Shown one piece after another: positions 11,647-38,119 of a stretch of DNA of 64,000 bases (the stretch's first letter is position 1; every line of letters starts with the position of its first letter). The stretch is from the NCBI GenBank assembly GCA_949373075.1, contig CASIBX010000040.1:6686-70685 (forward strand), given 5' to 3'. The translations under genes and the position numbers were made by a program. The notes under the pieces were generated by a model. The model had not been told where the DNA came from. It saw only the letters and a list, made by a program, of their open reading frames with translations, and did not search any database. The stretch is from Candidatus Poseidoniaceae archaeon. Lineage in GTDB: Archaea > Thermoplasmatota > Poseidoniia > Poseidoniales > Poseidoniaceae.

Positions 11647-11712
11647 TAACTGACAAGTTCCCGTCGATATTTTATGCCTGACTTGTGTGGAGGGAGAGAG
11701 AGGGTGCCACCT

Positions 11713-17517: not shown

Positions 17518-18315
17518 ATGAATCTAGATTGGGAAGACATCCATTGGAAAGATCCCGATGGTGGCACTATTGTGCTGCATGGGATACTACCTACAGTTGT
17601 ATTGCCCAATGTGATGCGCCCACGTTTGACGTGGCACGGCTTAGGTATCATGGGTTCAACCGAAGAAGTTGAAGTTTGGCTTGAAGAAGAGAAGGCAGAA
17701 TTAGAAGATTCAGGAATCAACCTTGACAGTGCGATTCTGAATGGTGGATTGGATGGATTATATCTTGAGATGTTAACTTGGGTCGATGGAATCCAAGTTG
17801 GTAAATTCCCCGACCCTGAACCTCGCAGATTGCACAAAGCTGCACAAAAGCATGGTAGGCCCGTATTTTTTGTTGAACCCGATATGGATGATGAAAGATG
17901 GGAGGAAATACTCATCAAAGAAGCGAAAGCAATGACGAGGCCATTCAAGTTGTTGAGGATAGTTTTCACCTCTCGACGGTGGAGGAAAAGTATCAAGAAA
18001 ATGAGGCTACATGTAGTGGAGCAGCCTCCACGGGAGCCCGATGGCTTGCAAGCAGCAAGCGCACTCGCTGCAACTTGGTGGAAACTAAACCGAGACAATT
18101 CAGATGAAGTTCTAAATGATGAGAAGGACGAGAGATTCGCTGCAAGACTTAGAGGCGGTCTTGCAATGCTCAGAGAAGAGCACGGCGATAAAGCCGTCTT
18201 GCTCGTTCCAATACAACAGGCATGGAGAGATTCTATGCTAAGAGCATTGAATACTATGCCTGATGCAGAGGAGAGTTCATCACTCTTGGGCACTTCGGAT
18301 GAAGAGGAGGAGTGA
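17518..18315 (+). CDS. hypothetical acidic cytoplasmic protein
   Basis: 265 aa, starting 6 nt after the giant gene. Its stop overlaps the next gene. No confident family; the C-terminal half is only faintly TraB/GumN-like. The 281-aa antisense ORF is Ser/Leu-rich shadow. Confidence 0.55.
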   Translation: MNLDWEDIHWKDPDGGTIVLHGILPTVVLPNVMRPRLTWHGLGIMGSTEEVEVWLEEEKAELEDSGINLDSAILNGGLDGLYLEMLTWVDGIQVGKFPDPEPRRLHKAAQKHGRPVFFVEPDMDDERWEEILIKEAKAMTRPFKLLRIVFTSRRWRKSIKKMRLHVVEQPPREPDGLQAASALAATWWKLNRDNSDEVLNDEKDERFAARLRGGLAMLREEHGDKAVLLVPIQQAWRDSMLRALNTMPDAEESSSLLGTSDEEEE

Positions 18316-18317
18316 CC

Positions 18318-18857
18318 ATGAGCGGAGTCGGTAAGTTCGATGTTAGAGTAGACAATCTACTAGTTCGCTTTACTCCATCTCCTCCGGTTGATCTCGAAGA
18401 GGCAGTTGAAAGATTGGGCGGAATCAGGAACGGAGACGTCATTATCAAGGCATTAGATGCTCCACGAGCGACTCTCATAATCGATTCAGGAGGCCGAATC
18501 ATAGTCCATGGTACTCATCGAATCGAAGCAGCAAGAGCGGCTGCAAAAGAAATGCTCCTGAGAATGGGTCGTGATGACTCAGGCATGGTGGCGGAACTTG
18601 GACCAATTGTGGCATCATTCGATTTCGGAGAAGAGGTTCCTATCAACAATTTACGTACTAATCTTGGAAGTGGAACTACGTCAATCGATGAGCGATTAGG
18701 CTGCTTAAGGTTGAATGATACTAGACATGATTTGGAATTACTGATTTGGGCTAACGGCCGTTGTGTTGCTTTGAATGCCCGCCATCAGAACATGGTGGCT
18801 ATGGCTGCAGTACATTGGAAGTCTAAATTCAGTGATAAGAAATCACTGAAGGCGTGA
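18318..18857 (+). CDS. divergent TBP-fold (TATA-binding-protein-like) protein
   Basis: Two internal repeats align by eye with the archaeal TBP repeats. PRATLIIDSGGRIIVHGTHRIEAARAAAKEMLLRMG matches [20 protein letters not shown]... The second repeat is HDLELLIWANGRCVALNARHQNMVAMAAVHW. GAGGAGG lies 8 nt upstream of ATG at 18318. Confidence 0.5.
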   Translation: MSGVGKFDVRVDNLLVRFTPSPPVDLEEAVERLGGIRNGDVIIKALDAPRATLIIDSGGRIIVHGTHRIEAARAAAKEMLLRMGRDDSGMVAELGPIVASFDFGEEVPINNLRTNLGSGTTSIDERLGCLRLNDTRHDLELLIWANGRCVALNARHQNMVAMAAVHWKSKFSDKKSLKA

Positions 18858-19705: not shown

Positions 19706-19752
19706 CCAAGAGTTCATGACCTCCGCTTTCTTCGGCAAGCACAGTGGTTACT

Positions 19753-20865
19753 ATGAAGAGGGTTATTTTAATCTCAATTCTCATATTTTTAATGTTAGCC
19801 CCTATGAATGTTCAAGCACAAGTACCAATTCCTGTTGCTGTTGAAATAGAATGCCAGCAATCTACAATTAACATAAACGTTCATCCTGAGCAAAACCAAC
19901 CGGTTTCTGTATCATGTACCGTGGAAAATACTGGTAGTTTCAAAGAACAGATTGACATCGATTGGAATGTCGAGGGCAATGATTTCAATCTCGATGTATC
20001 GGGGGATACCTCTTGGGATATTGAGGCGGGTGATTCCGAATCATTCACTGCAGTTTTCACAGCATCTGCTAGAATTGAGGTCAAATCTGAAGATTTCAAT
20101 ATCACGGCCACTGTAGTGAGTGTAACAATTGGCGGCGATCCTATTACAATCCCATTGGGACAATTTGGCTCAACTGCTGAAGTGGGCGGCACTGTCAATT
20201 CATTGGCGTATTCGAGAGTAGACTTGGAAGTGTCTAATCCTACTACGAGAAACATCGAGGTCTCGGAGGAGGAATCTATCCAATTTACTATTTTTAATGA
20301 TGGGAATAGAGCCGATAACCTTGAAGTGATTGTGGTCAATCAGCAAGAAATTGAAGATGCTGGTTTCAAATTTATTTCTGACTCGTTTTATCGTGCTACC
20401 GTTAATCCGGGTTCTTCTTCAGAACAGGGGACTATTCTCTTAGAAGCACCTTCGGAAGCATCTAGTGAAATCTCCATTCAGGTCGAACTTCGTGCATATT
20501 CCAAACTGGATGAATCTGCTGAACCAAGCGTAATTACTGTTAGGATTGTTGTCGCTGCTTCAGGGGGAGGAGGTACATTGGGTGGCTTTGATACTATGAG
20601 TGGTGAAAATTGGGCCATGATTGGAATGGCAGGAGGAGGCCTAATCGGGGTTATCCTTCTTCTTGTGATTATTTCTCGTCTTACCAAGAAAACAGCAGGT
20701 AAGCAAAAGGTTGCTCAAAAAGAAGCCAAGAAAGCAGCTAAGGCTGAACGTAAGTCTGGAAGAAAGGGCAAAAAAGCAAAACCAGTGGTTGACGAAGAAT
20801 CCTCTGATGACGACTTCGATTTCGATGATGATTTCGATGATGATTTTGATTTCGACGATTTGTGA
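19753..20865 (+). CDS. secreted, C-terminally anchored beta-sandwich (CARDB/NEW3-like) protein with a Lys-rich then Asp/Phe-rich tail
   Basis: Signal peptide MKRVILISILIFLMLAPMNVQAQ. Two CARDB-like modules. TM LIGVILLLVIISRL, a K-rich stretch, then DDDFDFDDDFDDDFDFDDL. Confidence 0.65.
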   Translation: MKRVILISILIFLMLAPMNVQAQVPIPVAVEIECQQSTININVHPEQNQPVSVSCTVENTGSFKEQIDIDWNVEGNDFNLDVSGDTSWDIEAGDSESFTAVFTASARIEVKSEDFNITATVVSVTIGGDPITIPLGQFGSTAEVGGTVNSLAYSRVDLEVSNPTTRNIEVSEEESIQFTIFNDGNRADNLEVIVVNQQEIEDAGFKFISDSFYRATVNPGSSSEQGTILLEAPSEASSEISIQVELRAYSKLDESAEPSVITVRIVVAASGGGGTLGGFDTMSGENWAMIGMAGGGLIGVILLLVIISRLTKKTAGKQKVAQKEAKKAAKAERKSGRKGKKAKPVVDEESSDDDFDFDDDFDDDFDFDDL

Positions 20866-20964: not shown

Positions 20965-20985
20965 CACCTACCCTAAGGGTAGGTG
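20965..20985 (+). promoter_or_regulatory. perfect 9-bp-arm palindrome/hairpin overlapping the fabI Shine-Dalgarno sequence
   Basis: CACCTACCC-TAA-GGGTAGGTG. The right arm contains AGGTG, ending 6 nt before the fabI ATG (20992). Confidence 0.45.
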
Positions 20986-20991
20986 CTAATT

Positions 20992-21786
20992 ATGCTAAAT
21001 TTACAAGGTAAAGTTGCATTTGTTTTCGGTGTTGCCAGTGAAGACTCAATCGCTTGGGCGATTTGTCAAAGTCTAGCTGATGCTGGGGTGACTTTGTATC
21101 TCGGTTATCAGAAGAGATTCATGTCTCGTGTTTTCCAATTAAAGGACAAACTTCCTGCTATTGCAGGGTTCTACCCTCTTGATGTTGCTACCGATGCAGA
21201 CACCAAGGAATTCTTCGATGCTTTCAGTGCAGAAAACCCTAACGTCAAGGCAGATATTTTGATTCATGCTATTGGCTTCGCACCTCGCGAATGCTTCGAC
21301 AGGCCTATTCTGTTCGTCGATGACGATAAAATCAACACAGCATTCACTATTTCAGCCAACTCTTTGCAACGCTGCCTAAAGTTTGCATTGCCTTATCTGA
21401 ATGAAGGCTCCTCCACAATCACGCTGACCTATGCTGCATCAACACGGCATGTTCCTTCTTACGGAATAATGAGTATGGCTAAGGCTGCTCTTGAGTGCTG
21501 GACAAGAGAATTAGCATGCCACCTTGGGCCGGAAGGCCATCGCGTTAATGCTATTTCAAGCGGGCCAATTCGCACTATTGCGGCTAGCGGCATTCCTGGA
21601 TTTGATAATATTCTCGACCATGTTGCGGCCAATTCACCATTACGCAGAAATGTTACACAATCCGATGTCGCTGGTTGTTCGACATGGCTTGCAAGCCCTC
21701 TTTCAGCAGGAGTTACGGGCCAGTGCATCTATGTCGACGCTGGTTATTCGATTACAATGGTTCCTTCAAGCATAATGGGTGAGTGA
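20992..21786 (+). CDS. fabI: enoyl-[acyl-carrier-protein] reductase (NADH), FabI
   Basis: LQGKVAFVFGVASEDSIAWAI N-terminus, catalytic Y-x6-K (YGIMSMAK), ISSGPIRT motif. The stop TGA (21784..21786) overlaps GTG at 21783 of the next gene. Confidence 0.9.
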   Translation: MLNLQGKVAFVFGVASEDSIAWAICQSLADAGVTLYLGYQKRFMSRVFQLKDKLPAIAGFYPLDVATDADTKEFFDAFSAENPNVKADILIHAIGFAPRECFDRPILFVDDDKINTAFTISANSLQRCLKFALPYLNEGSSTITLTYAASTRHVPSYGIMSMAKAALECWTRELACHLGPEGHRVNAISSGPIRTIAASGIPGFDNILDHVAANSPLRRNVTQSDVAGCSTWLASPLSAGVTGQCIYVDAGYSITMVPSSIMGE

Positions 21787-21791
21787 ATCCT

Positions 21792-24700
21792 ATGACAATA
21801 ACAACTGCAGATGGAAAGCCGTGTGATGGACTAGAGCAGGCCCCGTTTGAGCCAATTGCAGTAATTGGAATGGCAGCTCTAATGCCAGATGCAACTTCAA
21901 TTGAGCAGTTTTGGCAGAATATTATCGATGCACATGTTTCCATCAAAGAGGTCACTAAAGACAGATGGGACCCTGATATTTACTGGGATGAAGGCTCACC
22001 TGGTAATATCGCTGAGGGTAAAACATATTCCAAAATCGGAGGATTCGTAGAAGGATATGAGTTTGATTGGAGGCGATGGAGACAACCCCCGGGAACGCTC
22101 CCTCAGATTGACCCGTGCCAACTTTGGGCGGTTACAGTTTCTGCAGACGCTATTGAGCATGCAGGATATGGTGAAGGCGGAAAAACCCTAGACCGATCTA
22201 GAACAGGTGTAATTTTTGCAAATGCCTTAGGTGGTGAAAACCGTTCAGAATCGAATCTTCGCGTATTCAGTGCTGAGATGAGGAAAATAGCAATCGATAA
22301 CGGAGTTACTCCTGAGCAAGCCGACTCCATGGTTGAGACTATTTGCGAAGGAAAACCACGAATTGATGAAGATACAATGCCTGGAGAATTGGCGAATGTA
22401 GTAAGTGGAAGAGTTGCAAATCTTCTAGACTTGCAAGGTCCCAATTATTCTACAGATGCAGCATGTGCTTCCTCGATGGCCGCTTTACTCGATGCCTGCC
22501 GTCTTTTGCAGACAAGGCAAGTCGATACAATGCTCGCCGGAGCAACAGACCGTTGCATGGAAGCCCCGACATATGCTAAATTCAGTGCCATTGGAGCACT
22601 ATCTCCTACTCACTCGACACCTTTCGATGCACGGGCCAATGGATTCGTTATGGGCGAAGGCGCTGGCGTGTTACTGCTCAAGAGACTGTCAGATGCAATC
22701 CGTGATGGCGATGATGTCAAGGCGGTAGTTCGTGGGGTGGGGGGCTCTTCAGATGGTAGAGGCAAAGGAATAACTGCGCCAAGCCAGAGGGGGCAAGTTC
22801 AAGCGGTTAGCAGAGCATATTCACAAGCAGGATATGCCCCTTCTACTGTTGAGTTAGTCGAGGCACACGGAACCTCAACCAAAGTAGGCGATGCTACTGA
22901 ATTATCTACACTCTCACTTCTTTGGAATGATTTAGATGGCGGCGACCATATCGCAGTGGGCTCAGTAAAGAGTCAAATTGGCCACTTGAAAGCAGCAGCA
23001 GGTATTGCTGGAATTATGAAAGCATGCAATGCTGTTTATCACAACACTATCCCTCCAAGTGCAGGATTCCAAACACCTAATCCCACCGTTGAATGGAATG
23101 AAATTCCATTCTTTGTGCCAACAAAAGCTCGTGATTGGCCTGAGCCAAAATCTCACCCTCGCCGTGCAGGAGTTTCTGCATTTGGGTTTGGAGGGACTAA
23201 TTTCCACGTTGCAATCGAAGGTTACGTCCCCGAATTCCATGCCGAATTGGTATCTCACTGGGATGGAAGATGGGAAGCATATGCTGGATATGACAAGCCA
23301 TCTTCGGATAAGGCGACAATGACGCATGAACAGTTGAAAGCCATAGAAGGCGGATTGCTACTATTGTCAGGAGACTCTGTCGAGGCAGTGCGAACTAAGT
23401 TGGCAGCAGTTTCTTTCCAAGACTCTAATTTTGATGATGACCCTAGTGGAATTAGACTATCGTTCACTTTACCCGATGCATGGTCCTTTAGCCCATCTGA
23501 TTCCGTCCGCATGGCAATCTCAGCAACTAATTGGGCCGAATTCAACAAGAGAACAGAACTCGCATTGAAAGCGATGGATGACAAGGCTAAATGGGGCTTC
23601 TTAATGAGCCAGGGGATTATGATTAGCGATGATCCTGCATTACCCTCTGAAGCCAAAGTCGCCCACATGTATCCTGGCCAAGGTAGCCAATATGTTGGTA
23701 TGACGCATGACCTAAATCACCGCTTCACAGGCGTGGGCGAAGTTTGGGAGAAGGCCGACATTACCATGGTAGAGGTTTTGGATGGAGAAACCCTCTCGTC
23801 CTTTGTTCTACGTGATAATCTGTCACAAGAAGAAAAGGAAGAAGCAGAATTCAAACTCAAACAAACTGAATACACTCAACCTGCAATGTTAACCGCAGAT
23901 TTAGCCATAGAAGCGGCGCTTAATGCCCATGGGCACAAGCCCGATATGGTTGCAGGGCATAGTTTAGGAGAATATGCTGCATTGATGAGTGCAGGCATTC
24001 TAGATATGGATGGGGCACTAAGAGCAGCCGCTGCCCGTGGTACTGAGATGGGTAGTGTAGAAATCGACGATAAAGGACTAATGGCTAGCGTAACCGCTCC
24101 TTATACTCGAATAGCCGAGATTATTGAAGAGATAGACGGATACGTCATAGCAGCTAACAAAAACTCTCCTAAAATGACCGTAATAGCGGGTGAAACCGCT
24201 CCTGTCAAGGAGGCTATGTCTAAGTTTCAATCCGAAGGTTTCCAAAGTGTAGAACTGGCGACCAGTCACGCATTCCATTCTAGAATCGTAGCCCCTGCAA
24301 ATGAACCTCTTCGCAGGTTCCTCGAAGGACTTGAAATTAGATGGCCAAGCATTCCAATCACAAGCAACGTAGATGGTGGATGGTATCCAATGGATGATGG
24401 CAGCGATTCTAAGACAGCTGTGTTGTCAAAATTAGCACCGCAGATGGCGTCTAGTGTTGAATGGACTAAGCAGATAAATTCAATGTATGAAGCAGGAGCC
24501 AGAATCTTTGTCGAAGTTGGCCCTAAACGCGCATTGACCGTTTTCGCTTCACAAATTTTGGAAGGAAAAGTAGCCCTTCCAATTATGACAAATCACCCCA
24601 AGGCAGGAGGAATCGCAACTTTCCTGTCAGCATTAGGTACTCTCGCACTAGCGGGTAGAACTCCTGAGTGGCCAGACCGTAACAGTCCTCAACTTACCGA

Positions 24701-27700
24701 GGCATTCCGAGCGGGTCCGGTCGAAGCCCAAGGCGTATCTCAGCAACCGGCTACTCCGCTCAAAGAACGTAGCAGGCCACTGCCTTCCAAAGGCGGAGAC
24801 GTAATCACCAAGACTGTAGTACAATCTAAAGAGGCATTCAGCGACCCTGATGCCGCTAAAATTAACTTGGTAGGGGAACTAATTGCTGCACAAACTGGCT
24901 ACCCTGCTAAATTCTGCCAAGGAAATGTCGACATGCGAGATGTATTGGGAATGAACGACTCTCAAATACAAATTGTAGTGTCCAGCGTACATGCTCGTTG
25001 TAGCACAGACCCTGATTGGGATGTCACAGTAGCAAAAACTCCAGGGGATATCACTCGATGGATAACCGCTGCACCCATACCCGGCAGTAAAACTAGGGCT
25101 ACAAAATTCGATGACCGTGATGATGACCCGTATGTGATAACAGGAATTTCCTTAGGATTACCTGGCGGAGAAAGGGTATTCGACAAAGGTAACTTTGAGA
25201 AATTAATTCGTGGAGAAACCTGTATTAGCGAAGTTACTGATGATTACAAACAGAGATTGCTTGACAAAAATATTGTTCGCCTGATCAAAGGCAGAGATGG
25301 CAGCGTAGGTATGGACGCTGCGACAGAGTTTGGCGACATCCCTCAACTAGCTGGCCTCAAATCCGCATTTGATCCAACCGAGGAATTCGGTATTGATGCA
25401 AAGATTGCTGCTGCTTGGGACATGGCGACACAGTTAGCATGTGCTGCAGGATTGATTGCTCTCAAAGATGCAGGTATTCCTCTAACTCCTGTTGAACAGG
25501 TAGGTAAAGGCGGTTTGCGATTGATTCGCTCATGGCAGATGCCTTCAATGTACAGAGATAGAACTGGAATTGTCTTTTCATCATGTTTCGCAGGCCATCA
25601 AATGGCGGCCAAACATGCTAAGTTAAACGGTGATGATGGTGAAGGCAGATTTGACCGCCGATATCTATTCCAAATCCTCAATATGGGGCATTCACAATTC
25701 GCTCAACACGTGGGTATTCGTGGCCCTAATACTACCATTAACTTGGCATGTGCTTCTGCTACAGCAGCATTTGGTGTGGCCGAGGATTGGCTAGCAGCAG
25801 ACCGTTGTGACCGCGTAGTCATCATCTCTGCAGATGATGTGACTGGAGACGATATGTGGGAATGGATTGGCTCTGGTTTTGCCTCGAGTGGCGCTGCAGC
25901 TACCAGTAACGTCATCGAAGAAACAGCACTACCTTTCGATAAACGCCGAAACGGTTTGATTCTTGGAATGGGAGCCGCTGCATTCGTTGTAGAAAGGAAA
26001 TCACATTCAGATGCAAGGGGAGTTCAGCCTATGGCAGAGTTACTTGGTACTAGAATCGCTAACTCGGCCTTCCATGGAACCAGGCTTGATGTAGACCATG
26101 TCGCTTCTACTGTTGACGGATTCATTGGAGAAATGGAATCCCGCTGGGGCCTTGACCGTCACAAGATGGCTTCCGAAACAGTGTTCTTTTCCCATGAAAC
26201 ATTCACTCCTGCAAGAGGAGGCTCAGCCCAAGCCGAAGTTAAGGCACTGAGAGATACCTTCGGTGCGAGTACAGATTCGATAGTGATTGCCAATACCAAA
26301 GGTTTCACCGGACACCCAATGGGTGTCGGAATTGAAGATGCTGCAATGTTTTACGGTTTGATGACAGGTAAGATTCCACCAATCGCTAATCACAAGGAAG
26401 TAGACCCTGAATTAGGTAATCTGAAATTATCTAAGGGCGGGGCATATCCTGAACTGAAATATGGAATGCGATTTGCTGCAGGTTTTGGCAGCCAAATTGG
26501 GTTATCATTAGTTCGTAAGTGTGAATACACTGGTGACAGAATAAATCGGCAGAAATTGTTGACTTGGAATCAATCAATTGCAGGAACTCCAAACATCGAA
26601 TTACGTGTTCTTCAAAACAAACTAGTAGCATATGTTGATGGAGACAACAACCTCCATGGCGGTATTCAAGGAGAAGAATATGCGGTTCCTAATAATGTAC
26701 AACCAATCGCAGCTCCAGTCATTGCAGACGTAACTCCTGAACCGGTAGCCGTACCTGAACCAGTTGCAATCGTTGCGAAAGTTCCCCCACAGGAAGTTTC
26801 AGGTGATCTTACTTCAATCGTAATCGATGTAGTTGTAAACCACACAGGCTATCCTGCAGACTTCGTTGAACTCGACCAAGACCTCGAAGGTGAGTTGGGT
26901 ATTGATACGGTAAAACAGGCTGAAATAATGGCGGACATACGCACTAAATTTGCATTACCTGTAGACGAAGATTTCGTATTATCCGATTATCCAACCCTCA
27001 CTCATATGATTGGCTATATCCACAAAATGAAGGGAGGTAGTGCTCCAACTCCTACAGCGCCAACTCCAGTAGTTGAAACTGAAGTAAGCCAACCAGCGGA
27101 AGTAGTAGCCAAGGTAGAGCCTACTGTAATTCCAAAGACAGTAGTTTCGGCAGATACCTCCGATATCCAGCCCAAGTTGATTGGGGTTGTTGTGAAGCAT
27201 ACAGGTTATCCTGAAGACTTCATTGAAATGGACCAAGACCTTGAGGGAGAACTTGGAATCGATACGGTCAAACAGGCTGAAATCATGGGCGATGTAAGGG
27301 AGATTTTCTCATTACCTGTTGACGAGGACTTCGTACTTTCAGACCATCCTACGCTGAATCATTTCGTGGCATATATTCAGAAAATGACCGGCGCAACCGC
27401 CTCTTCACCCGCTCCAGTAGAGCCAACTCCTCTATCTGTACCTGCCTCTAAACCCGAGGCAGAACCAGTGAGGGAGCAAATTGTAGTAAGTGATAATGGA
27501 GAGATTCAGCCCAAACTAATCGCTGTAGTTGTCAAGCATACGGGATATCCTGATGATTTTATCGAGATGGACCAAGACCTTGAGGGGGAACTTGGAATCG
27601 ATACGGTCAAGCAGGCTGAAATTATGGGCGACGTCAGAGAGATTTTCTCTTTGCCTGTGGATGAAGATTTCGTCCTTTCAGACCATCCTACACTGAATCA

Positions 27701-30416
27701 TTTCGTTGCATATATTCAGAAGATGAAAGGGGGAAGTTCACCAGAACCAGTTCCAACACCCTCTCCAATTAGTGACGTAGCATCTGTTCCATCACCTATT
27801 GCGCCTGCACTAACACCTACACGTTCAACCACTAGGCGATGGCAAGTTGAGGTCGAGCCTTGCCCAGCAGTTGCAGAAGGATTGCCAATTGGTGGAACGA
27901 TTGTTCTTACACAAGATAGTTGGGGAGTCGCAGATGCATTAGCTCTCAGACTAAGCGAAAAAGGACTTTCAGTCGCTAAAATCGGCTTTGAGTTCGGTGC
28001 AAAGTCGGTAACTGAGCAAGAAGAATTGTCAGGCCACACCTTCAGAGCAGACCCTAGTAGCGAAGAACAAATTTCAGAAATCTGTTCACGAATAACAGGT
28101 GTTGCAGGAGTCATTCACTTAGCACCATTATCTCTTACAGGAAGTTCATGGGAATCTAAAGGTCCTTCCAACCAAGTAACTCTTGCAGCACACTCTTGGT
28201 TTGGCTTGCTCAAAGGACTCGACTCACAATTAGCAGTGATATCCTCTGGTATTGTTGGAAGCGTTACCGCTATGGATGGAAGACATGGAAATCGCGGAGA
28301 GAGATTCAATTCCCTCTCCTGCGCAGCCAGTGGCGTTACCAAATCATACGCGTTTGAGCGTGAAAACCTAAGATGTCGTGCTTTAGACTTGCATCCTGAA
28401 TTAATCATCGATGCAGAGGCTGCTGCTGAAATAATCGAAAATGACATGTTCAGTTTAGGGGGCGATGTAGAAGTTGGAATCGACAGAGACGGTAGACGAT
28501 GGACATTGGTCTGTTTTGCCGAAGACATTGTCGATGAAGTGAAATCTCTCGAATCAGATGACATTTGGGTTGTCAGTGGTGGAGGTTCCGGAGTAACAGC
28601 GGCTTCGATAATTGGAGTCTCAAATGCTAGCCAAGGAGCAGGAGCAACATTCTTGCTTCTTGGAAGAAGTAAACTTGAGGACGAAACTTCGACTTGGCTT
28701 GATTGGAGTGAAGAGCAACTAACCTCCAGAAAGATGGAACTTCGAGAGTCTCTGATGTCTGATTCAGAAAGTGGGAAAATCACAATGGTCGAATGGAATA
28801 ATGCCTGGACTAAATTAACTAGAAGCATGGATATTTACCGTACTATTAGCGTGATAAAGTCGAGTGGTAACCATGCAGAGTACCATTCCGCAGACGTTAC
28901 CGACTCTGATGCAATAATTGCAGCAGTTGGCGGAAGGAGCGTCACAGGAATCGTCCATGGCGCAGGACTTGAAGAATCTAAATTAGTCGCTGACAAAGAA
29001 TGGAAAACATTTGACTTGATTGTACGTGTGAAAGTAGATGGCTGGAAGGCGTTAATCTCAGCAGTTGGAGATGACTTACGATTTGCATGTGCATTCACAA
29101 GTGTTGCCGGACGCTTTGGAAATGGTGGCCAGACAGATTACGCCGCTGCAAATTCAATTCTAGATGCAGAGATGGCTCGATTAACTGCTAGTGGAGATTG
29201 CCGAGCAGTCGCCATTGGATGGACAGGTTGGAGAGATGTTGGTATGGCAACACGAGGTTCAATTGAAGCAGTATTCGAATCAGCGGGAATAGAAACGCTA
29301 GCAGTTGAACAGGGAGTTGAGATATTCGTAGGAGAGGCTCTTGCTGGTGGAAAGAGGAGAGTACTTGGCTGTGGATCTTTAGGTCTAATGGATAGGTTTG
29401 ATTCTTTCAGAGAAGCTCCGTTGAAATTACCTGCAGAGATGGCAGCATCTATTGCGGACCCTCGTCGTTTCCCTCTAATCGACAAATTAATTTCTCTTGA
29501 TGTTGGAAAGTCTTTGGTTTCACAATGCACACTTTCGACCCAAGACCATCCGTTCTTGATCGACCATTCAATCGATGGAGTGCCATATCATCCTGGAGTA
29601 ATGGCTATGGAGATGTTTGCAGAGAACTCTCTATTGCTATTGCCTGGTCATTGTATTGCCGGATTTGAAGATGTAACATTCGGTCTGCCGATTAAGATAA
29701 TGAAAGGTTCAATGACAGTTCGAGTAGAAGCCAAATTTGAACGGACTGATGGTGATTTAACTTGGGTGAGTTGCCGTTTAGTTTCTGATTTGGTTAACTC
29801 GAAAGGGGAGATATTTGGAGAGCCACGCCTTCATCATGAAGCAAAGGTTAGATTGGTTACTTCAAGTGATGATTTGCTTCCATTCCTTCAGAGTGAGGTT
29901 GATGCTTTACCAACTATTGGTACTCCTGCTGATGGCGAATTATTGCACCATTCAAGTTTCATCTACCTCAGATATTTCCATGGTCCAAGATTCCAATCGC
30001 ACGGCGGAGTTCTTCGTGGAATCGACAATGGCGTTGATGGAATCGCACTGATGAGGCACCAACTTCCAGCAACAGACCAGTTTGCTCAGGAAAGTGAAGG
30101 CGAAGAAATACTGCTAGACGCATTACCTATGCTGATAGAAGCAGGATTCCAAAACGCAGGCTTAGCCGCTATGGAGAGCGACGGTTTCTCCAGTTTACCA
30201 ATCGGAATTGAATGGACCACCATGCTAAGGGTCCCTGAATCTAATGAGAGACTTCGAATGCGTTCAGTGAAGGTCGCTTCTGAAGATGCAGGTGTAACTG
30301 TTCACGATGTCGTAATCGTTGGTGATGATGATGCTCCAGTATTGTCTCTCAAAGGATTGAGACTCAAGGCTATGGGAGAAGTACCTGAAGACCAAAGATT
30401 CACACTCGAGAGGTGA
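21792..30416 (+). CDS. type I PfaA-like polyketide/fatty-acid megasynthase: KS-AT-ACP-like-KS-ACP-ACP-ACP-KR-DH
   Basis: Numbering follows the track ORF (start 21783). KS1: DAACASS (C228), EAHGTST, KSQIGH. AT: GHSLGE (S727) and the malonyl-type HAFH motif. ACP-like domain: LGMNDSQ (about 24855..25080). KS2: LACASAT (C1323), SHETFTP, KGFTGHPMG. Three ACPs: LGIDTVKQAEIM. KR: VVSGGGSGVTA and GQTDYAAAN (Y2453). PS-type DH: HPFLIDHSIDGVPYHPG (H2595). Start is ATG at 21792 or the overlapping GTG at 21783. Confidence 0.9.
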   Translation: MTITTADGKPCDGLEQAPFEPIAVIGMAALMPDATSIEQFWQNIIDAHVSIKEVTKDRWDPDIYWDEGSPGNIAEGKTYSKIGGFVEGYEFDWRRWRQPPGTLPQIDPCQLWAVTVSADAIEHAGYGEGGKTLDRSRTGVIFANALGGENRSESNLRVFSAEMRKIAIDNGVTPEQADSMVETICEGKPRIDEDTMPGELANVVSGRVANLLDLQGPNYSTDAACASSMAALLDACRLLQTRQVDTMLAGATDRCMEAPTYAKFSAIGALSPTHSTPFDARANGFVMGEGAGVLLLKRLSDAIRDGDDVKAVVRGVGGSSDGRGKGITAPSQRGQVQAVSRAYSQAGYAPSTVELVEAHGTSTKVGDATELSTLSLLWNDLDGGDHIAVGSVKSQIGHLKAAAGIAGIMKACNAVYHNTIPPSAGFQTPNPTVEWNEIPFFVPTKARDWPEPKSHPRRAGVSAFGFGGTNFHVAIEGYVPEFHAELVSHWDGRWEAYAGYDKPSSDKATMTHEQLKAIEGGLLLLSGDSVEAVRTKLAAVSFQDSNFDDDPSGIRLSFTLPDAWSFSPSDSVRMAISATNWAEFNKRTELALKAMDDKAKWGFLMSQGIMISDDPALPSEAKVAHMYPGQGSQYVGMTHDLNHRFTGVGEVWEKADITMVEVLDGETLSSFVLRDNLSQEEKEEAEFKLKQTEYTQPAMLTADLAIEAALNAHGHKPDMVAGHSLGEYAALMSAGILDMDGALRAAAARGTEMGSVEIDDKGLMASVTAPYTRIAEIIEEIDGYVIAANKNSPKMTVIAGETAPVKEAMSKFQSEGFQSVELATSHAFHSRIVAPANEPLRRFLEGLEIRWPSIPITSNVDGGWYPMDDGSDSKTAVLSKLAPQMASSVEWTKQINSMYEAGARIFVEVGPKRALTVFASQILEGKVALPIMTNHPKAGGIATFLSALGTLALAGRTPEWPDRNSPQLTEAFRAGPVEAQGVSQQPATPLKERSRPLPSKGGDVITKTVVQSKEAFSDPDAAKINLVGELIAAQTGYPAKFCQGNVDMRDVLGMNDSQIQIVVSSVHARCSTDPDWDVTVAKTPGDITRWITAAPIPGSKTRATKFDDRDDDPYVITGISLGLPGGERVFDKGNFEKLIRGETCISEVTDDYKQRLLDKNIVRLIKGRDGSVGMDAATEFGDIPQLAGLKSAFDPTEEFGIDAKIAAAWDMATQLACAAGLIALKDAGIPLTPVEQVGKGGLRLIRSWQMPSMYRDRTGIVFSSCFAGHQMAAKHAKLNGDDGEGRFDRRYLFQILNMGHSQFAQHVGIRGPNTTINLACASATAAFGVAEDWLAADRCDRVVIISADDVTGDDMWEWIGSGFASSGAAATSNVIEETALPFDKRRNGLILGMGAAAFVVERKSHSDARGVQPMAELLGTRIANSAFHGTRLDVDHVASTVDGFIGEMESRWGLDRHKMASETVFFSHETFTPARGGSAQAEVKALRDTFGASTDSIVIANTKGFTGHPMGVGIEDAAMFYGLMTGKIPPIANHKEVDPELGNLKLSKGGAYPELKYGMRFAAGFGSQIGLSLVRKCEYTGDRINRQKLLTWNQSIAGTPNIELRVLQNKLVAYVDGDNNLHGGIQGEEYAVPNNVQPIAAPVIADVTPEPVAVPEPVAIVAKVPPQEVSGDLTSIVIDVVVNHTGYPADFVELDQDLEGELGIDTVKQAEIMADIRTKFALPVDEDFVLSDYPTLTHMIGYIHKMKGGSAPTPTAPTPVVETEVSQPAEVVAKVEPTVIPKTVVSADTSDIQPKLIGVVVKHTGYPEDFIEMDQDLEGELGIDTVKQAEIMGDVREIFSLPVDEDFVLSDHPTLNHFVAYIQKMTGATASSPAPVEPTPLSVPASKPEAEPVREQIVVSDNGEIQPKLIAVVVKHTGYPDDFIEMDQDLEGELGIDTVKQAEIMGDVREIFSLPVDEDFVLSDHPTLNHFVAYIQKMKGGSSPEPVPTPSPISDVASVPSPIAPALTPTRSTTRRWQVEVEPCPAVAEGLPIGGTIVLTQDSWGVADALALRLSEKGLSVAKIGFEFGAKSVTEQEELSGHTFRADPSSEEQISEICSRITGVAGVIHLAPLSLTGSSWESKGPSNQVTLAAHSWFGLLKGLDSQLAVISSGIVGSVTAMDGRHGNRGERFNSLSCAASGVTKSYAFERENLRCRALDLHPELIIDAEAAAEIIENDMFSLGGDVEVGIDRDGRRWTLVCFAEDIVDEVKSLESDDIWVVSGGGSGVTAASIIGVSNASQGAGATFLLLGRSKLEDETSTWLDWSEEQLTSRKMELRESLMSDSESGKITMVEWNNAWTKLTRSMDIYRTISVIKSSGNHAEYHSADVTDSDAIIAAVGGRSVTGIVHGAGLEESKLVADKEWKTFDLIVRVKVDGWKALISAVGDDLRFACAFTSVAGRFGNGGQTDYAAANSILDAEMARLTASGDCRAVAIGWTGWRDVGMATRGSIEAVFESAGIETLAVEQGVEIFVGEALAGGKRRVLGCGSLGLMDRFDSFREAPLKLPAEMAASIADPRRFPLIDKLISLDVGKSLVSQCTLSTQDHPFLIDHSIDGVPYHPGVMAMEMFAENSLLLLPGHCIAGFEDVTFGLPIKIMKGSMTVRVEAKFERTDGDLTWVSCRLVSDLVNSKGEIFGEPRLHHEAKVRLVTSSDDLLPFLQSEVDALPTIGTPADGELLHHSSFIYLRYFHGPRFQSHGGVLRGIDNGVDGIALMRHQLPATDQFAQESEGEEILLDALPMLIEAGFQNAGLAAMESDGFSSLPIGIEWTTMLRVPESNERLRMRSVKVASEDAGVTVHDVVIVGDDDAPVLSLKGLRLKAMGEVPEDQRFTLER
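26803..27732 (+). repeat. three tandem ACP-domain repeats (coding) separated by Pro/Ala-rich linkers
   Basis: Units are centred on GAT-ACG (Asp-Thr) codons; the ACG codons are at 26907, 27264 and 27603 (spacing 357 and 339 nt). Units 2 and 3 are nearly identical in protein and differ mostly at synonymous sites. Confidence 0.9.
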
Positions 30417-30420
30417 TTGA

Positions 30421-31110
30421 ATGGAAAAGATGGATCCAGTGACGGGTCCACGTATGTTCCTTGCTCGTCGCAAGATTGGTGATTGTATCAGCGTCCTCGC
30501 AGAAACAATCCCTAGGGGTTCACCAAAAAGAATCGCAGACCACAATTCAGGACGACTTCTTCTAGAAGAATGCTTGAGTGAATGGGGAATCCCAATCGAT
30601 TCAATAGAGGTCTTACGCACTGATGAGAGAGCCCCATACCTTTCATGGTTAGATGGTATTTGGAGAAATACTCCCTTGCCAGGGATAAGTATCGGCCATT
30701 CTGGTGAATGGGCTGTATGCGCTCTAATAGAACCTGGATTCTGGGTTGGAATCGATGCTGAGCCTAAGGATAGAGGCATTCAAGAAAATGCATTTGATAT
30801 GATGGCTAAGGGTGAAGAATTAGATTGGTTGAAATCAAATCCAGGGCAAGCAATTCGCATATGGACGGCCAAAGAGGCTGTACAAAAAGCAGAGAGGAGG
30901 GGGATGAACCTCAATCCAAGAGATATTGTTCTTGATAATTACCAAGTTGAATCATTTATCCATGAAGACCAGATGGTTTCAGTTTCATGGCGTAATGCAG
31001 GAGATGACCCTGTGAGTGCAGAAGACGATTTATTGCAACAAACCCGAATTGCTATGCAGTCCGGTGAATCATGGGGCGTTGGTTGTAATACAACCAGAAA
31101 TAATGTTTGA
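30421..31110 (+). CDS. Sfp-type 4'-phosphopantetheinyl transferase
   Basis: ISIGHSGEWAVCAL, WVGIDAEP and IWTAKEAVQKAERRG match the Sfp/PfaE-type PPTase motifs. ATG lies 4 nt after the megasynthase stop and is preceded by GAGAGGTGA. Confidence 0.85.
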   Translation: MEKMDPVTGPRMFLARRKIGDCISVLAETIPRGSPKRIADHNSGRLLLEECLSEWGIPIDSIEVLRTDERAPYLSWLDGIWRNTPLPGISIGHSGEWAVCALIEPGFWVGIDAEPKDRGIQENAFDMMAKGEELDWLKSNPGQAIRIWTAKEAVQKAERRGMNLNPRDIVLDNYQVESFIHEDQMVSVSWRNAGDDPVSAEDDLLQQTRIAMQSGESWGVGCNTTRNNV

Positions 31111-33424: not shown

Positions 33425-36400
33425 TCAGAATCGAGGAGGAGGTCCACCAAGCATGCTGTTCTCATCGATTACGAATCTGTCCGCTCTCACCCTGTTTAGG
33501 TGCTCTACACGCTCTGATTTCCTACGTTTCGAGTTCCTTCTACCGTTAACTGCAAGGAATAATCCTAGAATAAGTGCAAGACTTACTGCTATGATTTCTT
33601 GAATGTGTGGGACATCTTTAGTTTGCTCTAACAGATCATCGAATGTTTCACCATCATCAGAATTGATAGTTTTGATTTTGATGGAAGTAGTCGCCATCGT
33701 AGATTCAGAGCCAGGCTCACTCGCAGATATTCCAGGCGTCTTCGTTCCTTTCGCGGTCATCTGTCCCGAGAAGGCAACTGTTTGAACTCCTTCTCCGGGT
33801 ATCACAAGTATGTGTGAGCGTACTCCAGCATCAATAGAGTTAGTCGATTCCCATACGACTATTACTGCCAATTCATTTTGAATCATATTGGTGATAGTAC
33901 AAGTAAAAGTTAGGCTTGAATCAACCGCTAGATCAACATTGAATTCGTTAGGGTCGCAAGATAGCAACACTTCTGCAGTGTTACGTGTAGGGTCTTCAGG
34001 CCAGTGGTCTGGCAATTCAGCCCCAGGCGAATTATTGTCTCCAAATCCATCGCCATCCCCGTCTTCATGTTGTGTTCTGTGTTCAGGGAAAGCATCTCCA
34101 ATGTTTGACCAACCGTCCAAGTCATTGTCAGGACAACCCAGTAAGTCCAGAGTAGCAGTTCCTGCTGCGGATGAGCATTGGTCCCCATCTGTACCATCTG
34201 CATTGTCACCATAGCCATCTCCATCTGTGTCTAGCCATTGAGTAGGGTCTGCCGGAAGGAAGTCATTATTGTTCGACCATGAATCACCATCGTCATCTAA
34301 ACATCCGATGCTACCGTTAGTGGAGTTTCCTGCAGCTAGCGGACAATTATCGATATTGTCTCCAAATCCATCAGAGTCATTATCTGACCACTCGCTAGTG
34401 TCGGAAGGGAATGCATCTCCAGAATCAGACCATGTGTCACCATCTGCATCTGTACAACCGAATGTATCCGAACTACTGTTTCCAAATTGAGAGGGGCATG
34501 AATCGGGTGTTGTTCCTTCAGCATTATCTCCAAATCCATCATTATCAGTGTCGTTCCATTGTGTGTTGTCTAGTGGGAATGAATCATCTAAGTCAGCCCA
34601 TGAGTCCTGGTCTGCATCAAAACATCCTAAGGAGCCGTTGGTTGAAGTTCCTGCAGTCTCAAAACAATCGTCTTCGACATCATCATATCCGTCCCCATCG
34701 GTATCGAGGTACCTAGTAGGGTCTAGCGGGAAGTCATCGTTCAGGTCAGAATGACCATCGCCATCGGTATCGACACATCCAAGTCGGTCAATTGTTGAAT
34801 TTCCAAATGTGAGTGGGCAATCATCTGCGTTGTTACCTGCAGCATTGTCTCCGTATCCATCACCATCTTGGTCTTCATATTGAGTAGGGTCATTTGGCAG
34901 TGCATCAATCATGTCTGCCCAGCCATCGCCGTCAGCATCCACACAACCTAGCATTCCGCCTTCGGTTGAATTACCCCATATTCCCAAACATGAATCGTGA
35001 TTGTTACCAATTATATTGTCTCCAAATCCGTCTCCATCAGCATCTTGCCATTGGGTAGAATCATTGGTGAAACTATCTTCTGAATCTGCCCAACCATCGC
35101 TATCGAAATCGGGGCAACCAAGAGTTCCATTTTGCCAAGAGTCACCGGCTGTGTTAACACAATCGTCAGCTAGATTGCCGGTTGGCTCGTCTCCAAACCC
35201 ATCGCCATCAGTATCGTTCCACTGTGTTTGGTCTGCAGGGAAGGCATCGTGGTCAACTGTGCGTCCATCTCCGTCTGCATCTAGGCAACCTACTACAATC
35301 CAAGTCGAGTTACCTGCAAAGTTCGGACAATCGTCCTCACTATCTGCAATACCATCACCGTCTGTATCGATAGACTTTGTAGGGTCGTTTGGCCATTGGT
35401 CATTAGAATTTGAAATTCCATCCCCGTCGCTGTCAAGGCATCCTTGCAAATCAATAGTTGAATTGCCCCAAACAGTAGGACAATCATCCCAATTTGTAGC
35501 AGGGTTTGGATTGTCATAATAGGTGTCTCCGTCAGTATCCAGCCATTGGCTTGAATCGTTAACAAGTATGTCGTTTAGGTCGGATTGACTATCACCGTCA
35601 GAGTCAAGACACCCATTTCTGTCAAGTGAAGAATTACCCCAGACCGTTTCACAAGCATCTGCTCCTTGAATTGCAATCCAACCACCATCAGGGTCTGACC
35701 ATGAATCAGAATCAGTATCTGGGCAGCCATAGCGGTCACCGCTGGATGTTCCAGCAACAGAGGTACAGGAATCAGCGTTGACCCCACCAGGGTTATCACC
35801 GAACCCATCACTATCGGAATCTGACCATTGTGTTCCTTCGTTAGGGAAATCATCCCCTACATTGGACCATCCATCTCCATCTCCATCCGGGCATCCGGTT
35901 TGGTCTTGAGTAGATGTTCCTGCTGTATTTGGACAGTCATCAAGAGTGTCAATTATTCCGTCACCATCGGCATCGGCAGACATGTTGATCATGGAATAAG
36001 GAGCATCGATAACCATGGCAAAGGATTGTGGTCCAGTTGGGATATTAGTTCCATTTACGTGAACCTCCCACTGACCTGCCATCGGAGATGAGATAGTTGT
36101 ACCAATCAGGTTGTCAAGATTGTTGCCATATTCGACCCAATTCCCATTAGGGTCTTTTACTGCAAAGTCGATATCGTTAACCAAATTGGTGGATGCAGCA
36201 GGAGTGCTAGCAGGGTCAGTCCATGATACCATTACTTTGAGGTCAGGTGCGCTTGCAGGGACTGTAAATTTCCAACTTCTAGAATCTCCAGTATTAACCG
36301 ATTCATCATCTACCCAAGTGGTATTCACTGCACGGTCAAGGTCGAGAAGTCCCCATCCTTCGTGGTTGTTAGGTGCACTTTCACCAGCACCATTGCTAGA

Positions 36401-38119
36401 AGACCCGTACTGGCCTGACATGTCATGTGCGCTAGCTGCAATTATTCCCTTTACTAGGGCACTTGTAGGAGTTGTGTGCGCTAAATTATCAATCAAATGT
36501 TGATACAGCAGGGCGGATGCACCTGCTGTAATTGGGGTTGCCATGCTAGTTCCTCCCATGAAGGTGTAATCTGAATTTGAGTGAGCACCCCATCCTGTTT
36601 GTGTTGTTGAGCGACTCTTTGCTGAAAGAATGAAACTCCCTGGTGCTGAGACATCAGGCTTTAGCCTTCCATCATCGACAGGACCACGGCTTGAGAATGC
36701 GGCTAATCCTTCGGTATTATTTGCCATCTTATCGGAATTAATCGGGTCGGTTGGATAGTCTCCTGGCCACCATTGTCCCCATTGATTGGAAATAGTTGAA
36801 CCTCGGTTATTTTCAGATGCACCAACAGTGAGAACGTTCTTCGCAGTAGCAGGTGCACCCATGCTATCTAGGTCTACTTCTCCATCACTATTGGCGTCTG
36901 TTCCTTCATTCGCTGCCGCGAATAAAATTAACAATCCAGTGTGATTTCTTGCCGAATGGTCTGCCTGCATAGAATTGGAGGTATATTGTCCAGCAACTGA
37001 TGATCCCCACGAATTTGTGTGTATGTTAGAGCCATTTGCAACAGCATCATCAAACATGTTGCTCAAGTCGTCTGGTATGCCCATCAATGTGTAATCATCT
37101 GTATATCCATACGTGTTCTCCACCGATGTAGTCCAATCTGTCCAGACTTCAGTAGCCTGCATGTAGAGTCTTGCTTCAGGTGCAATTCCTTTGATAGATC
37201 CTGAGGACTGAGTTCCATCTCCTAGTACAGAGCCTGCCACGTGAGTTCCATGCCCACTATCAAGGTCAGATGCACCATCTTCGTATGGGGCGTTAGCATA
37301 ACTTTGCATTCCTGATGGAATGCCGTAGGAGTGAATGCCTACTATGTGGTCTCTGAAATCAGGGTGCATATTGGTATTGTTTATTCCATTATCCAATCCC
37401 GTATCTGAAACTGTTACGATAATTCCTGTACCATCTAATGCATTCCAAGCAGAGTTTATTCCTGCCATTTGGGTAGCGTCCTGTAATACAGTCGCACCGA
37501 TTACAGCATCAGCCTCATCGTTTAGTAGAACCTTTTCGAACTGAGGCTCAATCCACTCAACTTCTGATTGTTGGATTAGCCATTCTACTCCACTAATTCT
37601 AACTTCAACTGTTGCCCATCTCCAACTGTGTGACATTACTTCAACATCACTTCTGTCTTCAATTCCCTCAGGTAATTCATCCCCTGACAAAACCAAACTT
37701 ACAACTCCTATACCTTTAGCGATGAACCAAGAATCCATCTCTCCCTTCAGAGATGGCATTAGGTCAGGGTGTAGTTTTGCAGAAGGTGGCATTTCGATCA
37801 TTCCATTAACGTCAAGTTTCGCCAACTCAGAAGTGGTATGCCCGTTTAATTCACAATGGAATGCAGATGATGGCAAAAATGACCAGCACTCAATACCTGC
37901 TGCAGCAAGTTCATGCACCCATTCGCTAGGAACTGGATATTCATGAGTAAGCATCCAAAAACCAGAGTGTGAAGTATCAGGGTATTGCAGAATTGGAACA
38001 GATTCAATGTCTCCATTACGTAGTCCAATAGTCTCTCCGTCTACGCTTTGGGGTTGCCAAGCAGCGACGGAACCAAATGAAGATAAAACCAGTAGGCCAA
38101 CAAGGGCTATTGCTCGCAT
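33425..38119 (-). CDS. giant subtilisin-like (S8) serine protease with a Ca-binding repeat array and a C-terminal TM anchor
   Basis: Signal peptide MRAIALVGLLVLSSFGSVAA. Catalytic triad motifs VSDTGLD, HGTHVAGS, GGTSMATP. A beta-sandwich follows the catalytic domain, then about 12 repeats of roughly 60 aa of thrombospondin-type-3-like DxDxDG units. TM IIAVSLALILGLFLAV, then a basic tail. Confidence 0.9.
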   Translation of the reverse strand: MRAIALVGLLVLSSFGSVAAWQPQSVDGETIGLRNGDIESVPILQYPDTSHSGFWMLTHEYPVPSEWVHELAAAGIECWSFLPSSAFHCELNGHTTSELAKLDVNGMIEMPPSAKLHPDLMPSLKGEMDSWFIAKGIGVVSLVLSGDELPEGIEDRSDVEVMSHSWRWATVEVRISGVEWLIQQSEVEWIEPQFEKVLLNDEADAVIGATVLQDATQMAGINSAWNALDGTGIIVTVSDTGLDNGINNTNMHPDFRDHIVGIHSYGIPSGMQSYANAPYEDGASDLDSGHGTHVAGSVLGDGTQSSGSIKGIAPEARLYMQATEVWTDWTTSVENTYGYTDDYTLMGIPDDLSNMFDDAVANGSNIHTNSWGSSVAGQYTSNSMQADHSARNHTGLLILFAAANEGTDANSDGEVDLDSMGAPATAKNVLTVGASENNRGSTISNQWGQWWPGDYPTDPINSDKMANNTEGLAAFSSRGPVDDGRLKPDVSAPGSFILSAKSRSTTQTGWGAHSNSDYTFMGGTSMATPITAGASALLYQHLIDNLAHTTPTSALVKGIIAASAHDMSGQYGSSSNGAGESAPNNHEGWGLLDLDRAVNTTWVDDESVNTGDSRSWKFTVPASAPDLKVMVSWTDPASTPAASTNLVNDIDFAVKDPNGNWVEYGNNLDNLIGTTISSPMAGQWEVHVNGTNIPTGPQSFAMVIDAPYSMINMSADADGDGIIDTLDDCPNTAGTSTQDQTGCPDGDGDGWSNVGDDFPNEGTQWSDSDSDGFGDNPGGVNADSCTSVAGTSSGDRYGCPDTDSDSWSDPDGGWIAIQGADACETVWGNSSLDRNGCLDSDGDSQSDLNDILVNDSSQWLDTDGDTYYDNPNPATNWDDCPTVWGNSTIDLQGCLDSDGDGISNSNDQWPNDPTKSIDTDGDGIADSEDDCPNFAGNSTWIVVGCLDADGDGRTVDHDAFPADQTQWNDTDGDGFGDEPTGNLADDCVNTAGDSWQNGTLGCPDFDSDGWADSEDSFTNDSTQWQDADGDGFGDNIIGNNHDSCLGIWGNSTEGGMLGCVDADGDGWADMIDALPNDPTQYEDQDGDGYGDNAAGNNADDCPLTFGNSTIDRLGCVDTDGDGHSDLNDDFPLDPTRYLDTDGDGYDDVEDDCFETAGTSTNGSLGCFDADQDSWADLDDSFPLDNTQWNDTDNDGFGDNAEGTTPDSCPSQFGNSSSDTFGCTDADGDTWSDSGDAFPSDTSEWSDNDSDGFGDNIDNCPLAAGNSTNGSIGCLDDDGDSWSNNNDFLPADPTQWLDTDGDGYGDNADGTDGDQCSSAAGTATLDLLGCPDNDLDGWSNIGDAFPEHRTQHEDGDGDGFGDNNSPGAELPDHWPEDPTRNTAEVLLSCDPNEFNVDLAVDSSLTFTCTITNMIQNELAVIVVWESTNSIDAGVRSHILVIPGEGVQTVAFSGQMTAKGTKTPGISASEPGSESTMATTSIKIKTINSDDGETFDDLLEQTKDVPHIQEIIAVSLALILGLFLAVNGRRNSKRRKSERVEHLNRVRADRFVIDENSMLGGPPPRF
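34025..35977 (-). repeat. coding tandem array of about 12 units of roughly 60 aa (Cys pair + DxDGDG calcium-binding motifs)
   Basis: Unit pattern: D-C-x3-G-N-S-(T/S)-x4-6-G-C-x-D-x-D-G-D-G-W-x-D-x3-F-P-x-D-x-T-Q-W-x-D-T-D-G-D-G-(F/Y)-G-D-N. Confidence 0.8.

Follow-up and report, generated by a model that had tools for sequence, protein, structure and literature searches.

Background

The serine on which acyl carrier proteins (ACPs) accept 4'-phosphopantetheine is taken to be invariant: the PROSITE pattern of these proteins is built around it, and mutating it is how 'dead' ACPs are made. Here, we describe an iterative type I synthase encoded on a 64,000-nucleotide stretch of DNA from a Candidatus Poseidoniaceae archaeon (GenBank assembly GCA_949373075.1, contig CASIBX010000040.1, positions 6,686 to 70,685 of the forward strand; hereafter, the window), in which three tandem ACPs all carry threonine at this site and a gene for a 4'-phosphopantetheinyl transferase (PPTase) follows directly downstream. 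Threonine occupies the same position across a large and mostly bacterial family of related synthases, and we argue below that it is probably the residue to which phosphopantetheine is attached.

Several described enzymes resemble this synthase. Enediyne polyketide synthases of the PKSE type (e.g., CalE8 and SgcE) are iterative enzymes built from ketosynthase (KS), acyltransferase (AT), ACP, ketoreductase (KR) and dehydratase (DH) domains in the order KS-AT-ACP-KR-DH, with a PPTase fused at the C-terminus. Also similar are PfaA of the bacterial polyunsaturated fatty acid (PUFA) synthases, with its tandem ACPs (LGIDSIKRVEIL), and the Type R secondary lipid synthases, the latter comprising a pfaA homologue ordered KS-MAT-CLF-ACP(3-6)-KR (CLF, chain-length factor) and a downstream PPTase, reported from Koribacter, Solibacter, Elusimicrobium minutum and Roseiflexus (Shulse and Allen 2011, PMC3098273). 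The product of the Type R synthases is given as unknown in that study, in which the words 'threonine', 'serine' and 'archaea' do not appear (PMC3098273). The serine-to-threonine substitution itself has served as a null allele of the E. coli carrier protein (PMC3340395).

The synthase gene of the window is as follows.

21783..30416 (+), 2877-residue iterative type I synthase, domain order KS1-AT-pseudoACP-KS2-ACPx3-KR-DH (open reading frame (ORF) list, translation and Pfam)

Its domains follow the Type R order, i.e., KS-MAT-CLF/KS2-ACP(3-6)-KR with three ACPs, and the PPTase lies downstream as in the Type R loci. Loci from Acidobacteriaceae, Chloroflexota and Elusimicrobium minutum, matched to the described Type R synthases by lineage rather than by exact strain, share the whole architecture at 38–50% identity. 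The window version differs in being archaeal, in having a FabI-like enoyl reductase (ER) encoded upstream, in an extra degenerate ACP-like domain (pseudo-ACP) between AT and KS2, and in a DH placed after the KR. With PfaA, the synthase shares tandem ACPs on Pro/Ala-rich linkers, a megasynthase build of the form KS-AT...ACPn-KR-DH, a dedicated Sfp-type PPTase (PfaE in the PUFA system) and a closely similar helix II motif, D-[ST]-[IV]-K-x-[AV]-E. PfaA, however, has Ser at the acceptor site and lacks a second KS between AT and ACPs, and no PfaB, PfaC or PfaD partners were found in the window. Although the PfaA model TIGR02813 is the best NCBIfam match of the synthase, its score of 925.3 bits falls under the cutoff of 1010.1, and this score together with the architecture excludes the synthase from PfaA.

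Threonine at the acceptor site of three tandem carrier domains

The three ACPs lie between KS2 and the KR region.

26802..27038 (+), ACP1 core, residues 1674-1752; Thr1709, codon ACG at 26907-26909; domain E-value 4e-35 with an ACP hidden Markov model (HMM)
27159..27395 (+), ACP2 core, residues 1793-1871; Thr1828, codon ACG at 27264-27266; from translation, ACP HMM and AlphaFold2 model
27498..27734 (+), ACP3 core, residues 1906-1984; Thr1941, codon ACG at 27603-27605; from Pfam and ACP HMM

Each of them reads ELGIDTVKQAEIM, encoded with GAT ACG (Asp-Thr) at 26904-26909, 27261-27266 and 27600-27605, in frame with the synthase ORF; residue numbers count from the GTG at 21783, and the tryptic peptide that bears the carrier-site Thr is ...DLEGELGIDTVK. 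Pfam PP-binding (PF00550) recognizes three stretches of the synthase with 69.6 bits against a cutoff of 20.8. In phmmer alignments against all chains of the Protein Data Bank (PDB), the Thr column coincides with the Ser of the DS motif in PigH, Plasmodium ACP and Thermotoga ACP. The AlphaFold2 model of ACP2 (pLDDT 92.9) has helices at residues 2-14, 35-49 and 65-76, with the Thr as first residue of helix II, and a Foldseek comparison places it at TM scores of 0.8–0.87 to dozens of solved ACPs, including AntF, PfACP, Thermotoga ACP and B. subtilis ACP. ACP2 thus has the four-helix ACP fold in model and structural comparison, while the Ser at the N-terminus of helix II that the PP-binding family calls for is replaced by Thr in 3/3 ACPs of the window.

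These data bear out the first-pass annotation of this DNA, made from the letters alone, which had seen Thr in place of the canonical Ser in each of the three copies: codons, phmmer alignment and structural model agree. A misalignment hiding a helix II Ser is ruled out by the phmmer alignments, the AlphaFold2 model and the column statistics, i.e., neither the model nor the 232 unique ACP domains that we compared provide an alternative, the latter having no conserved Ser column. The same annotation had proposed that copies 2 and 3 differ chiefly at synonymous sites under purifying selection, and had called for a dN/dS estimate. Over the 79-residue cores, ACP2 and ACP3 share 92% amino acid and 83% nucleotide identity, with a synonymous difference (pS) of 0.65, a non-synonymous difference (pN) of 0.04 and a dN/dS of ~0.03, as expected from that proposal. 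For ACP1 against ACP2 or ACP3, synonymous sites are saturated and pN is 0.17–0.19 over the same cores.

Threonine is conserved across a large synthase family

We then evaluated the acceptor site beyond the window. Searching proteins with the tri-ACP region gave 847 matches, with LG[IV]DTVKQAE in nearly all of the top 120. This search was word-indexed and could favour DTVKQ words, and we therefore made two checks free of that bias: a DNA pattern blind to the site, and an exhaustive HMMER search. The pattern, [DE][LM]E[AG][DE]LG[IV]D, stops just before the acceptor site and was scanned over 185,579 species genomes of GTDB, yielding at least 543 confirmed stretches. For detailed analysis, we assembled 79 loci, 78 kept from the scan matches listed and one additional locus; the locus counts and the taxonomic spread given below hold among the matches listed.

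At the residue following the pattern, Thr was found 254 times, Ser 7 times and no other residue at all (261 sites in 79 loci), i.e., a Thr share of 97%. The number of tandem ACP copies per synthase ranged from 2 to 7. The loci come from marine group II (MGII), other Thermoplasmata, Myxococcales, Leptospiraceae, Acidobacteriota, Actinomycetes, Chloroflexota, Elusimicrobiota, Rhodothermales, Thermodesulfobacteriota and others, and most of the family is bacterial. Cultured Actinomycetes (Amycolatopsis, Nonomuraea rosea and Planobispora takensis) are among the carriers, and the Elusimicrobium minutum genome (L062) encodes 4 Thr-ACPs. Among the matches listed, the loci nearest to the window synthase are from metagenome-assembled genomes of MGII (Poseidoniales).

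The HMMER search covered 1.84 billion cluster representatives (clusters at 50% identity) and recovered 7632, 4371 and 1432 proteins at E-values ≤1e-3, ≤1e-10 and ≤1e-30, respectively. Among the best-scoring 139 new representatives, on which the ACP census was made, 99 had Thr-only and 29 Ser-only ACPs, the latter mostly of classic PfaA (LGIDSIKRVE) or planctomycete (LGIDSIKKAQ) type with a few variants. The two checks thus counter the suspicion that the Thr excess was a product of word-indexed searching.

Throughout the family, the helix II face DTVKQAE is extremely conserved. Relatives in independent assemblies encode the Thr with ACG, ACT, ACA and ACC, and because four different codons are in use, it is the threonine itself that is conserved; a miscalled Ser codon in the window finds no support in these other assemblies. 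Whether Thr might be lineage-wide had been left as a check, and it proved to be the rule in a family that spans Archaea and ~10 bacterial phyla. Overall, Thr at the carrier site is a conserved hallmark of a large synthase family across many phyla.

Serine does occur at the site, in contexts that are informative. Among the matches listed, a single MGII relative has it in both of its ACPs, the UBA596 locus L015, with TCA codons (positions 6558 and 6927 of the locus). In a tree of KS2 sequences, L015 is sister to the Thr-bearing L014 inside the Thr clade, and its Ser is thus a derived reversion. One protein fragment (P0242) combines one DS with two DT ACPs, and a Ser-type synthase of the same build (P0172, one of the few Ser-only variants above) has a fused PPTase that the same PPTase profile recognizes. 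The residue is always one with a hydroxyl group, and Ser and Thr replace each other while the surrounding motif stays the same. We also observed that the PPTase of L015 (9765..10532 of the locus) has Thr in place of the His of IxHSG, a single case among 65 PPTases.

A dedicated phosphopantetheinyl transferase

30421..31110 (+), Sfp-type 4'-phosphopantetheinyl transferase, starting 5 nt past the synthase stop (Pfam ACPS, PF01648, 41.4 bits, cutoff 25)

The co-encoded PPTase that the initial reading had named is therefore real by profile score, and its sequence has the attributes of an Sfp-type (group II) enzyme: the ACPS profile, a catalytic His, the GxDxE pair and WxxKE(A/S)xxK. Aligned to Sfp (PDB entries 1qr0 and 4mrt), IGHSG, GIDAE and WTAKEAVQK are all in place, and we take these motifs to correspond to Sfp H90, D107, E109, E151 and K155.

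The association with the synthase holds for most loci. With an iterated profile, a PPTase was found in the flank, within 10 kb, of ~68/79 loci, and all 65 cluster-linked PPTases retain the G-D-E and K-E...K residues. At 9 loci (L030, L033, L048, L057 from Thermoplasmata, L077, L031, L034, L037 and L049), the PPTase continues the synthase reading frame C-terminally without an intervening stop. Fusion to the synthase C-terminus also recurred in 23/139 of the best new representatives, 22 of them with Thr-only and 1 with Ser-only ACPs, and Pfam confirms single polypeptides ordered NMO(ER)-KS-AT-ACPn-KR-DH-ACPS. The enediyne PKSEs share with these 23 representatives the build of a highly reducing iterative type I synthase that primes itself through a C-terminal PPTase; they differ in having a single, Ser-type ACP and no KS2, and the PPTase of the window is a separate gene.

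The surroundings of the PPTase vary. Among the fusions, which also include proteins P0176 and P0132, some add a PfaD-like NMO enoyl reductase at the N-terminus, giving proteins of 3000–3700 residues ordered ER-KS-AT-KS-ACPn-KR-DH-PPTase. On a bacterial 2.4-Mb contig (L001), genes for biotin carboxylase/BCCP and carboxyltransferase (acetyl-CoA carboxylase) and for an acyl-CoA dehydrogenase lie between or beside synthase and PPTase, and the same arrangement has been reported for Koribacter (Shulse and Allen 2011, PMC3098273). At several Acidobacteriota and Actinomycetota loci as well, the PPTase is far downstream of the synthase, at ~19 kb of the locus. In the window, a biotin carboxylase gene lies at 5437..6795, 15 kb upstream.

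The synthase is intact around its carriers

The remaining domains of the synthase, and the reductase gene that precedes it, are listed below.

20983..21786 (+), FabI-like enoyl reductase (SDR), Pfam adh_short_C2 at E 1.6e-66; its stop overlaps the synthase start
21849..23222 (+), KS1, Pfam ketoacyl-synt and Ketoacyl-synt_C, residues 23-429; TDAACASS holds the active-site Cys, EAHGTST and IGHLK the His residues
23667..24656 (+), acyltransferase domain with GHSLGE, Pfam Acyl_transf_1, residues 629-958
24855..25082 (+), degenerate ACP-like domain between AT and KS2, residues ~1025-1100, weak BLASTP similarity to the tandem ACPs
25185..26702 (+), KS2, second ketoacyl-synt stretch (Pfam); Cys kept in INLACASATAAF
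27870..29282 (+), ketoreductase region with YAAAN, Pfam KR at residues 2353-2485, conserved in relatives
29472..30386 (+), PKS-type dehydratase, Pfam PKS_DH_N and PS-DH, residues 2564-2868; HxxxGxxxxP is HSIDGVPYHP

The synthase ORF runs uninterrupted for 8.6 kb, with the catalytic motifs of KS1, AT, KS2, KR and DH all present. The order KS1-AT-KS2-ACPn-KR-DH is common to nearly all loci (~70, in tblastn searches with the window domains, among the matches listed), and KS2 is conserved across loci at 37–84% (tblastn). KS2, the CLF of the Type R definition, keeps a Cys resembling that of an active site and has SHETFTP at the position of HGTST in KS1. This second KS could be catalytically active and act as a ketosynthase in its own right, not as a chain-length factor. 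The FabI-like ER is syntenic in the MGII loci that reach that far upstream, at 73–94% identity.

Together, ER, megasynthase and PPTase form a complete bacterial-type cassette (20983..31110) that is syntenic in ~15 MGII genomes and present in other Thermoplasmata as well. Its surroundings are archaeal, with genes for Cdc6/Orc1, TBP, PCNA and Nop56/58 in the same window (markers at 478..1746, minus strand, 18312..18857, 41680..42420, and 43126..44133, minus strand). The archaeal lineage to which the host belongs is generally regarded as lacking ACP, AcpS and PPTase.

The pseudo-ACP was considered as an alternative carrier. It gives a weak ACP-HMM match at residues 1031-1058 and reads TGYPAKF...LGMNDSQIQ in the window; relatives have LGLSE, LGLTA or LGLNG in place of LGMNDS. 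By tblastn, the domain is confined to the MGII versions and was not detected in bacterial relatives. Being MGII-specific, poorly conserved and without a conserved acceptor, it was rejected as a real carrier; a fourth carrier may survive in it as a structural or docking remnant. No other ACP-like ORF was found in the 64-kb window with the ACP HMM (--max, E ≤10).

Phosphopantetheine on threonine as the most probable reading

Given a site that admits only hydroxyl residues, the tie to a PPTase, the lack of an alternative carrier and the intact catalytic domains, the most straightforward interpretation is that Thr receives 4'-phosphopantetheine from the dedicated PPTase, and we assign it a probability of roughly 0.7. 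The domains are then probably working acyl carriers of the Type R secondary lipid synthase family, with Thr at the N-terminus of helix II as acceptor. Under this reading, the downstream Sfp-type PPTase would move 4'-phosphopantetheine from coenzyme A (CoA) to the Thr hydroxyl, yielding O-phosphopantetheinyl-threonine; AT would put malonyl units on the thiol, KS1 and KS2 would elongate the chain, and KR, DH and the upstream FabI-like ER would reduce it, with a long-chain acyl 'secondary lipid' as the presumed end product. The maintenance of intact KS1, AT, KS2, KR and DH around dead carriers would be odd. As to why Thr should be preferred, we can only speculate: it might make for an orthogonal carrier/PPTase pair insulated from the housekeeping AcpS and AcpH, or for a phosphodiester more resistant to beta-elimination.

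Several observations weigh against phosphopantetheine on Thr. The one precedent found, E. coli ACP(S36T) with the identical substitution at the identical structural position, cannot take 4'-phosphopantetheine and is non-functional (PMC3340395), so the cluster PPTase would need an altered acceptor specificity. The engineered protein is one that AcpS cannot modify, whereas the Thr of the window is naturally selected and paired with an Sfp-type PPTase. Across the 65 cluster-linked PPTases, we found no signature of Thr specificity, their motifs being ordinary Sfp-type. The 97% preference for Thr over Ser implies that the methyl group matters, so that mere equivalence of the two hydroxyls is no explanation. 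Finally, linkage cannot tell acceptor types apart, because dedicated PPTases accompany Ser-type PfaA clusters too.

Of the other explanations, the one that survives best, albeit an unlikely one, is that the Thr-ACPs are never phosphopantetheinylated and act as structural or docking scaffolds or simply stay empty, with CoA, or a separate Ser-ACP whose gene lies elsewhere, carrying the intermediates. A host lineage that generally lacks ACP and AcpS would favour such an arrangement, which also fits proposals of ACP-independent fatty acid synthesis in Archaea, but the family as a whole is mostly bacterial. The pseudo-ACP demonstrates that non-carrier ACP folds exist in this very protein, yet it also displays what true decay looks like, while the DTVKQAE face of the tandem domains is extremely conserved and takes Thr or Ser only, which is the signature of an acceptor and not of a scaffold. 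The unmodifiable S36T protein of E. coli (PMC3340395) is in line with unmodified domains; set against it are a PPTase linked in ~68/79 loci and fused to Thr-only synthases in 22 representatives, and the absence of any Ser carrier from the 64-kb window in the ACP-HMM search. Tandem copies, here 2–7 per synthase, are moreover a known route to carrier throughput in PUFA-type synthases (PMC3098273).

Alternatively, the Thr could bear another group, either of the phosphoribosyl-dephospho-CoA type found on the ACPs of citrate lyase and malonate decarboxylase or a regulatory phosphorylation, put there by another enzyme while the PPTase serves some other target. The 97% Thr preference does hint at a chemistry or recognition unlike the canonical system, and no report of phosphopantetheine on Thr was found in the literature searched. 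We nevertheless regard this as improbable: no CitX/MdcG-like or kinase gene was seen adjoining the synthase in the window, the constant partner is an Sfp-type PPTase, often fused, whose CoA/Mg catalytic residues are intact, and Ser-type reversions occur with the same PPTase family.

It is very improbable that the real attachment site is instead the Thr of TGYP or the Thr of PTL: although both are 98–100% conserved in the 232 unique ACP domains, they sit where helix I ends and ahead of helix IV in the structural model rather than at the helix II N-terminus that PPTases and partner enzymes address, and Ser/Thr alternation is seen only at the canonical position. The last possibility, a sequencing or assembly error or a pseudogenized synthase that has lost its ACP Ser, has nothing in its favour other than the a priori rarity of Thr at the site and is ruled out by three independent Thr codons in the window, hundreds of independent assemblies with Thr and synonymous codon turnover, the dN/dS of ~0.03 and an unbroken 8.6-kb ORF with intact catalytic motifs; Thr for Ser is neither sequencing error nor decay.

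Other genes of the window

Just upstream of the lipid cassette, a 1945-residue ORF (11674..17511, plus strand) has no Pfam match at E ≤1e-3, and neither do the ORFs at 17518..18315 and 19744..20865. Elsewhere in the window, a single 1107-residue ORF (50743..54066, plus strand) unites B12-binding, MeaB-like GTPase and methylmalonyl-CoA mutase domains in an IcmF-like fusion. Two large proteins appear to be surface-exposed or secreted, namely a 2642-residue protein with RCC1-like repeats and He_PIG Ig domains (56052..63980, minus strand) and a 1564-residue subtilase (33425..38119, minus strand).

Implications

Carrier protein, PPTase and PUFA-like synthase are all familiar components here, and the unfamiliar one is the acceptor residue. 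In the literature searched, which left most subscription-journal papers outside its scope, we found neither a description of Thr-type carrier proteins or of Thr phosphopantetheinylation nor a characterized Type R product, and the MGII genome papers checked do not discuss the synthase cassette.

Extending the proposal from the window to the family, we consider it likely that O-(4'-phosphopantetheinyl)-threonine is a natural and widespread post-translational modification, found in at least 1432 clusters across ~10 bacterial phyla and in Thermoplasmatota including MGII, and installed by a co-evolved lineage of Sfp-type PPTases, with carrier and enzyme forming a pair orthogonal to AcpS and Ser-ACP. 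If true, this would give phosphopantetheine biology a new acceptor residue and, in all probability, a new post-translational modification, along with a PPTase lineage of altered acceptor specificity that could be turned into an orthogonal tool for labelling or priming. In that case, thousands of synthases may be mis-scored as inactive wherever annotation or genome mining insists on DS. For the Type R secondary lipid synthases, the finding would offer a handle on their product; and for MGII, which are among the most abundant archaeal plankton and whose membrane lipid biochemistry is debated, it would mean the presence of an ACP-dependent, bacterial-type lipid synthase.

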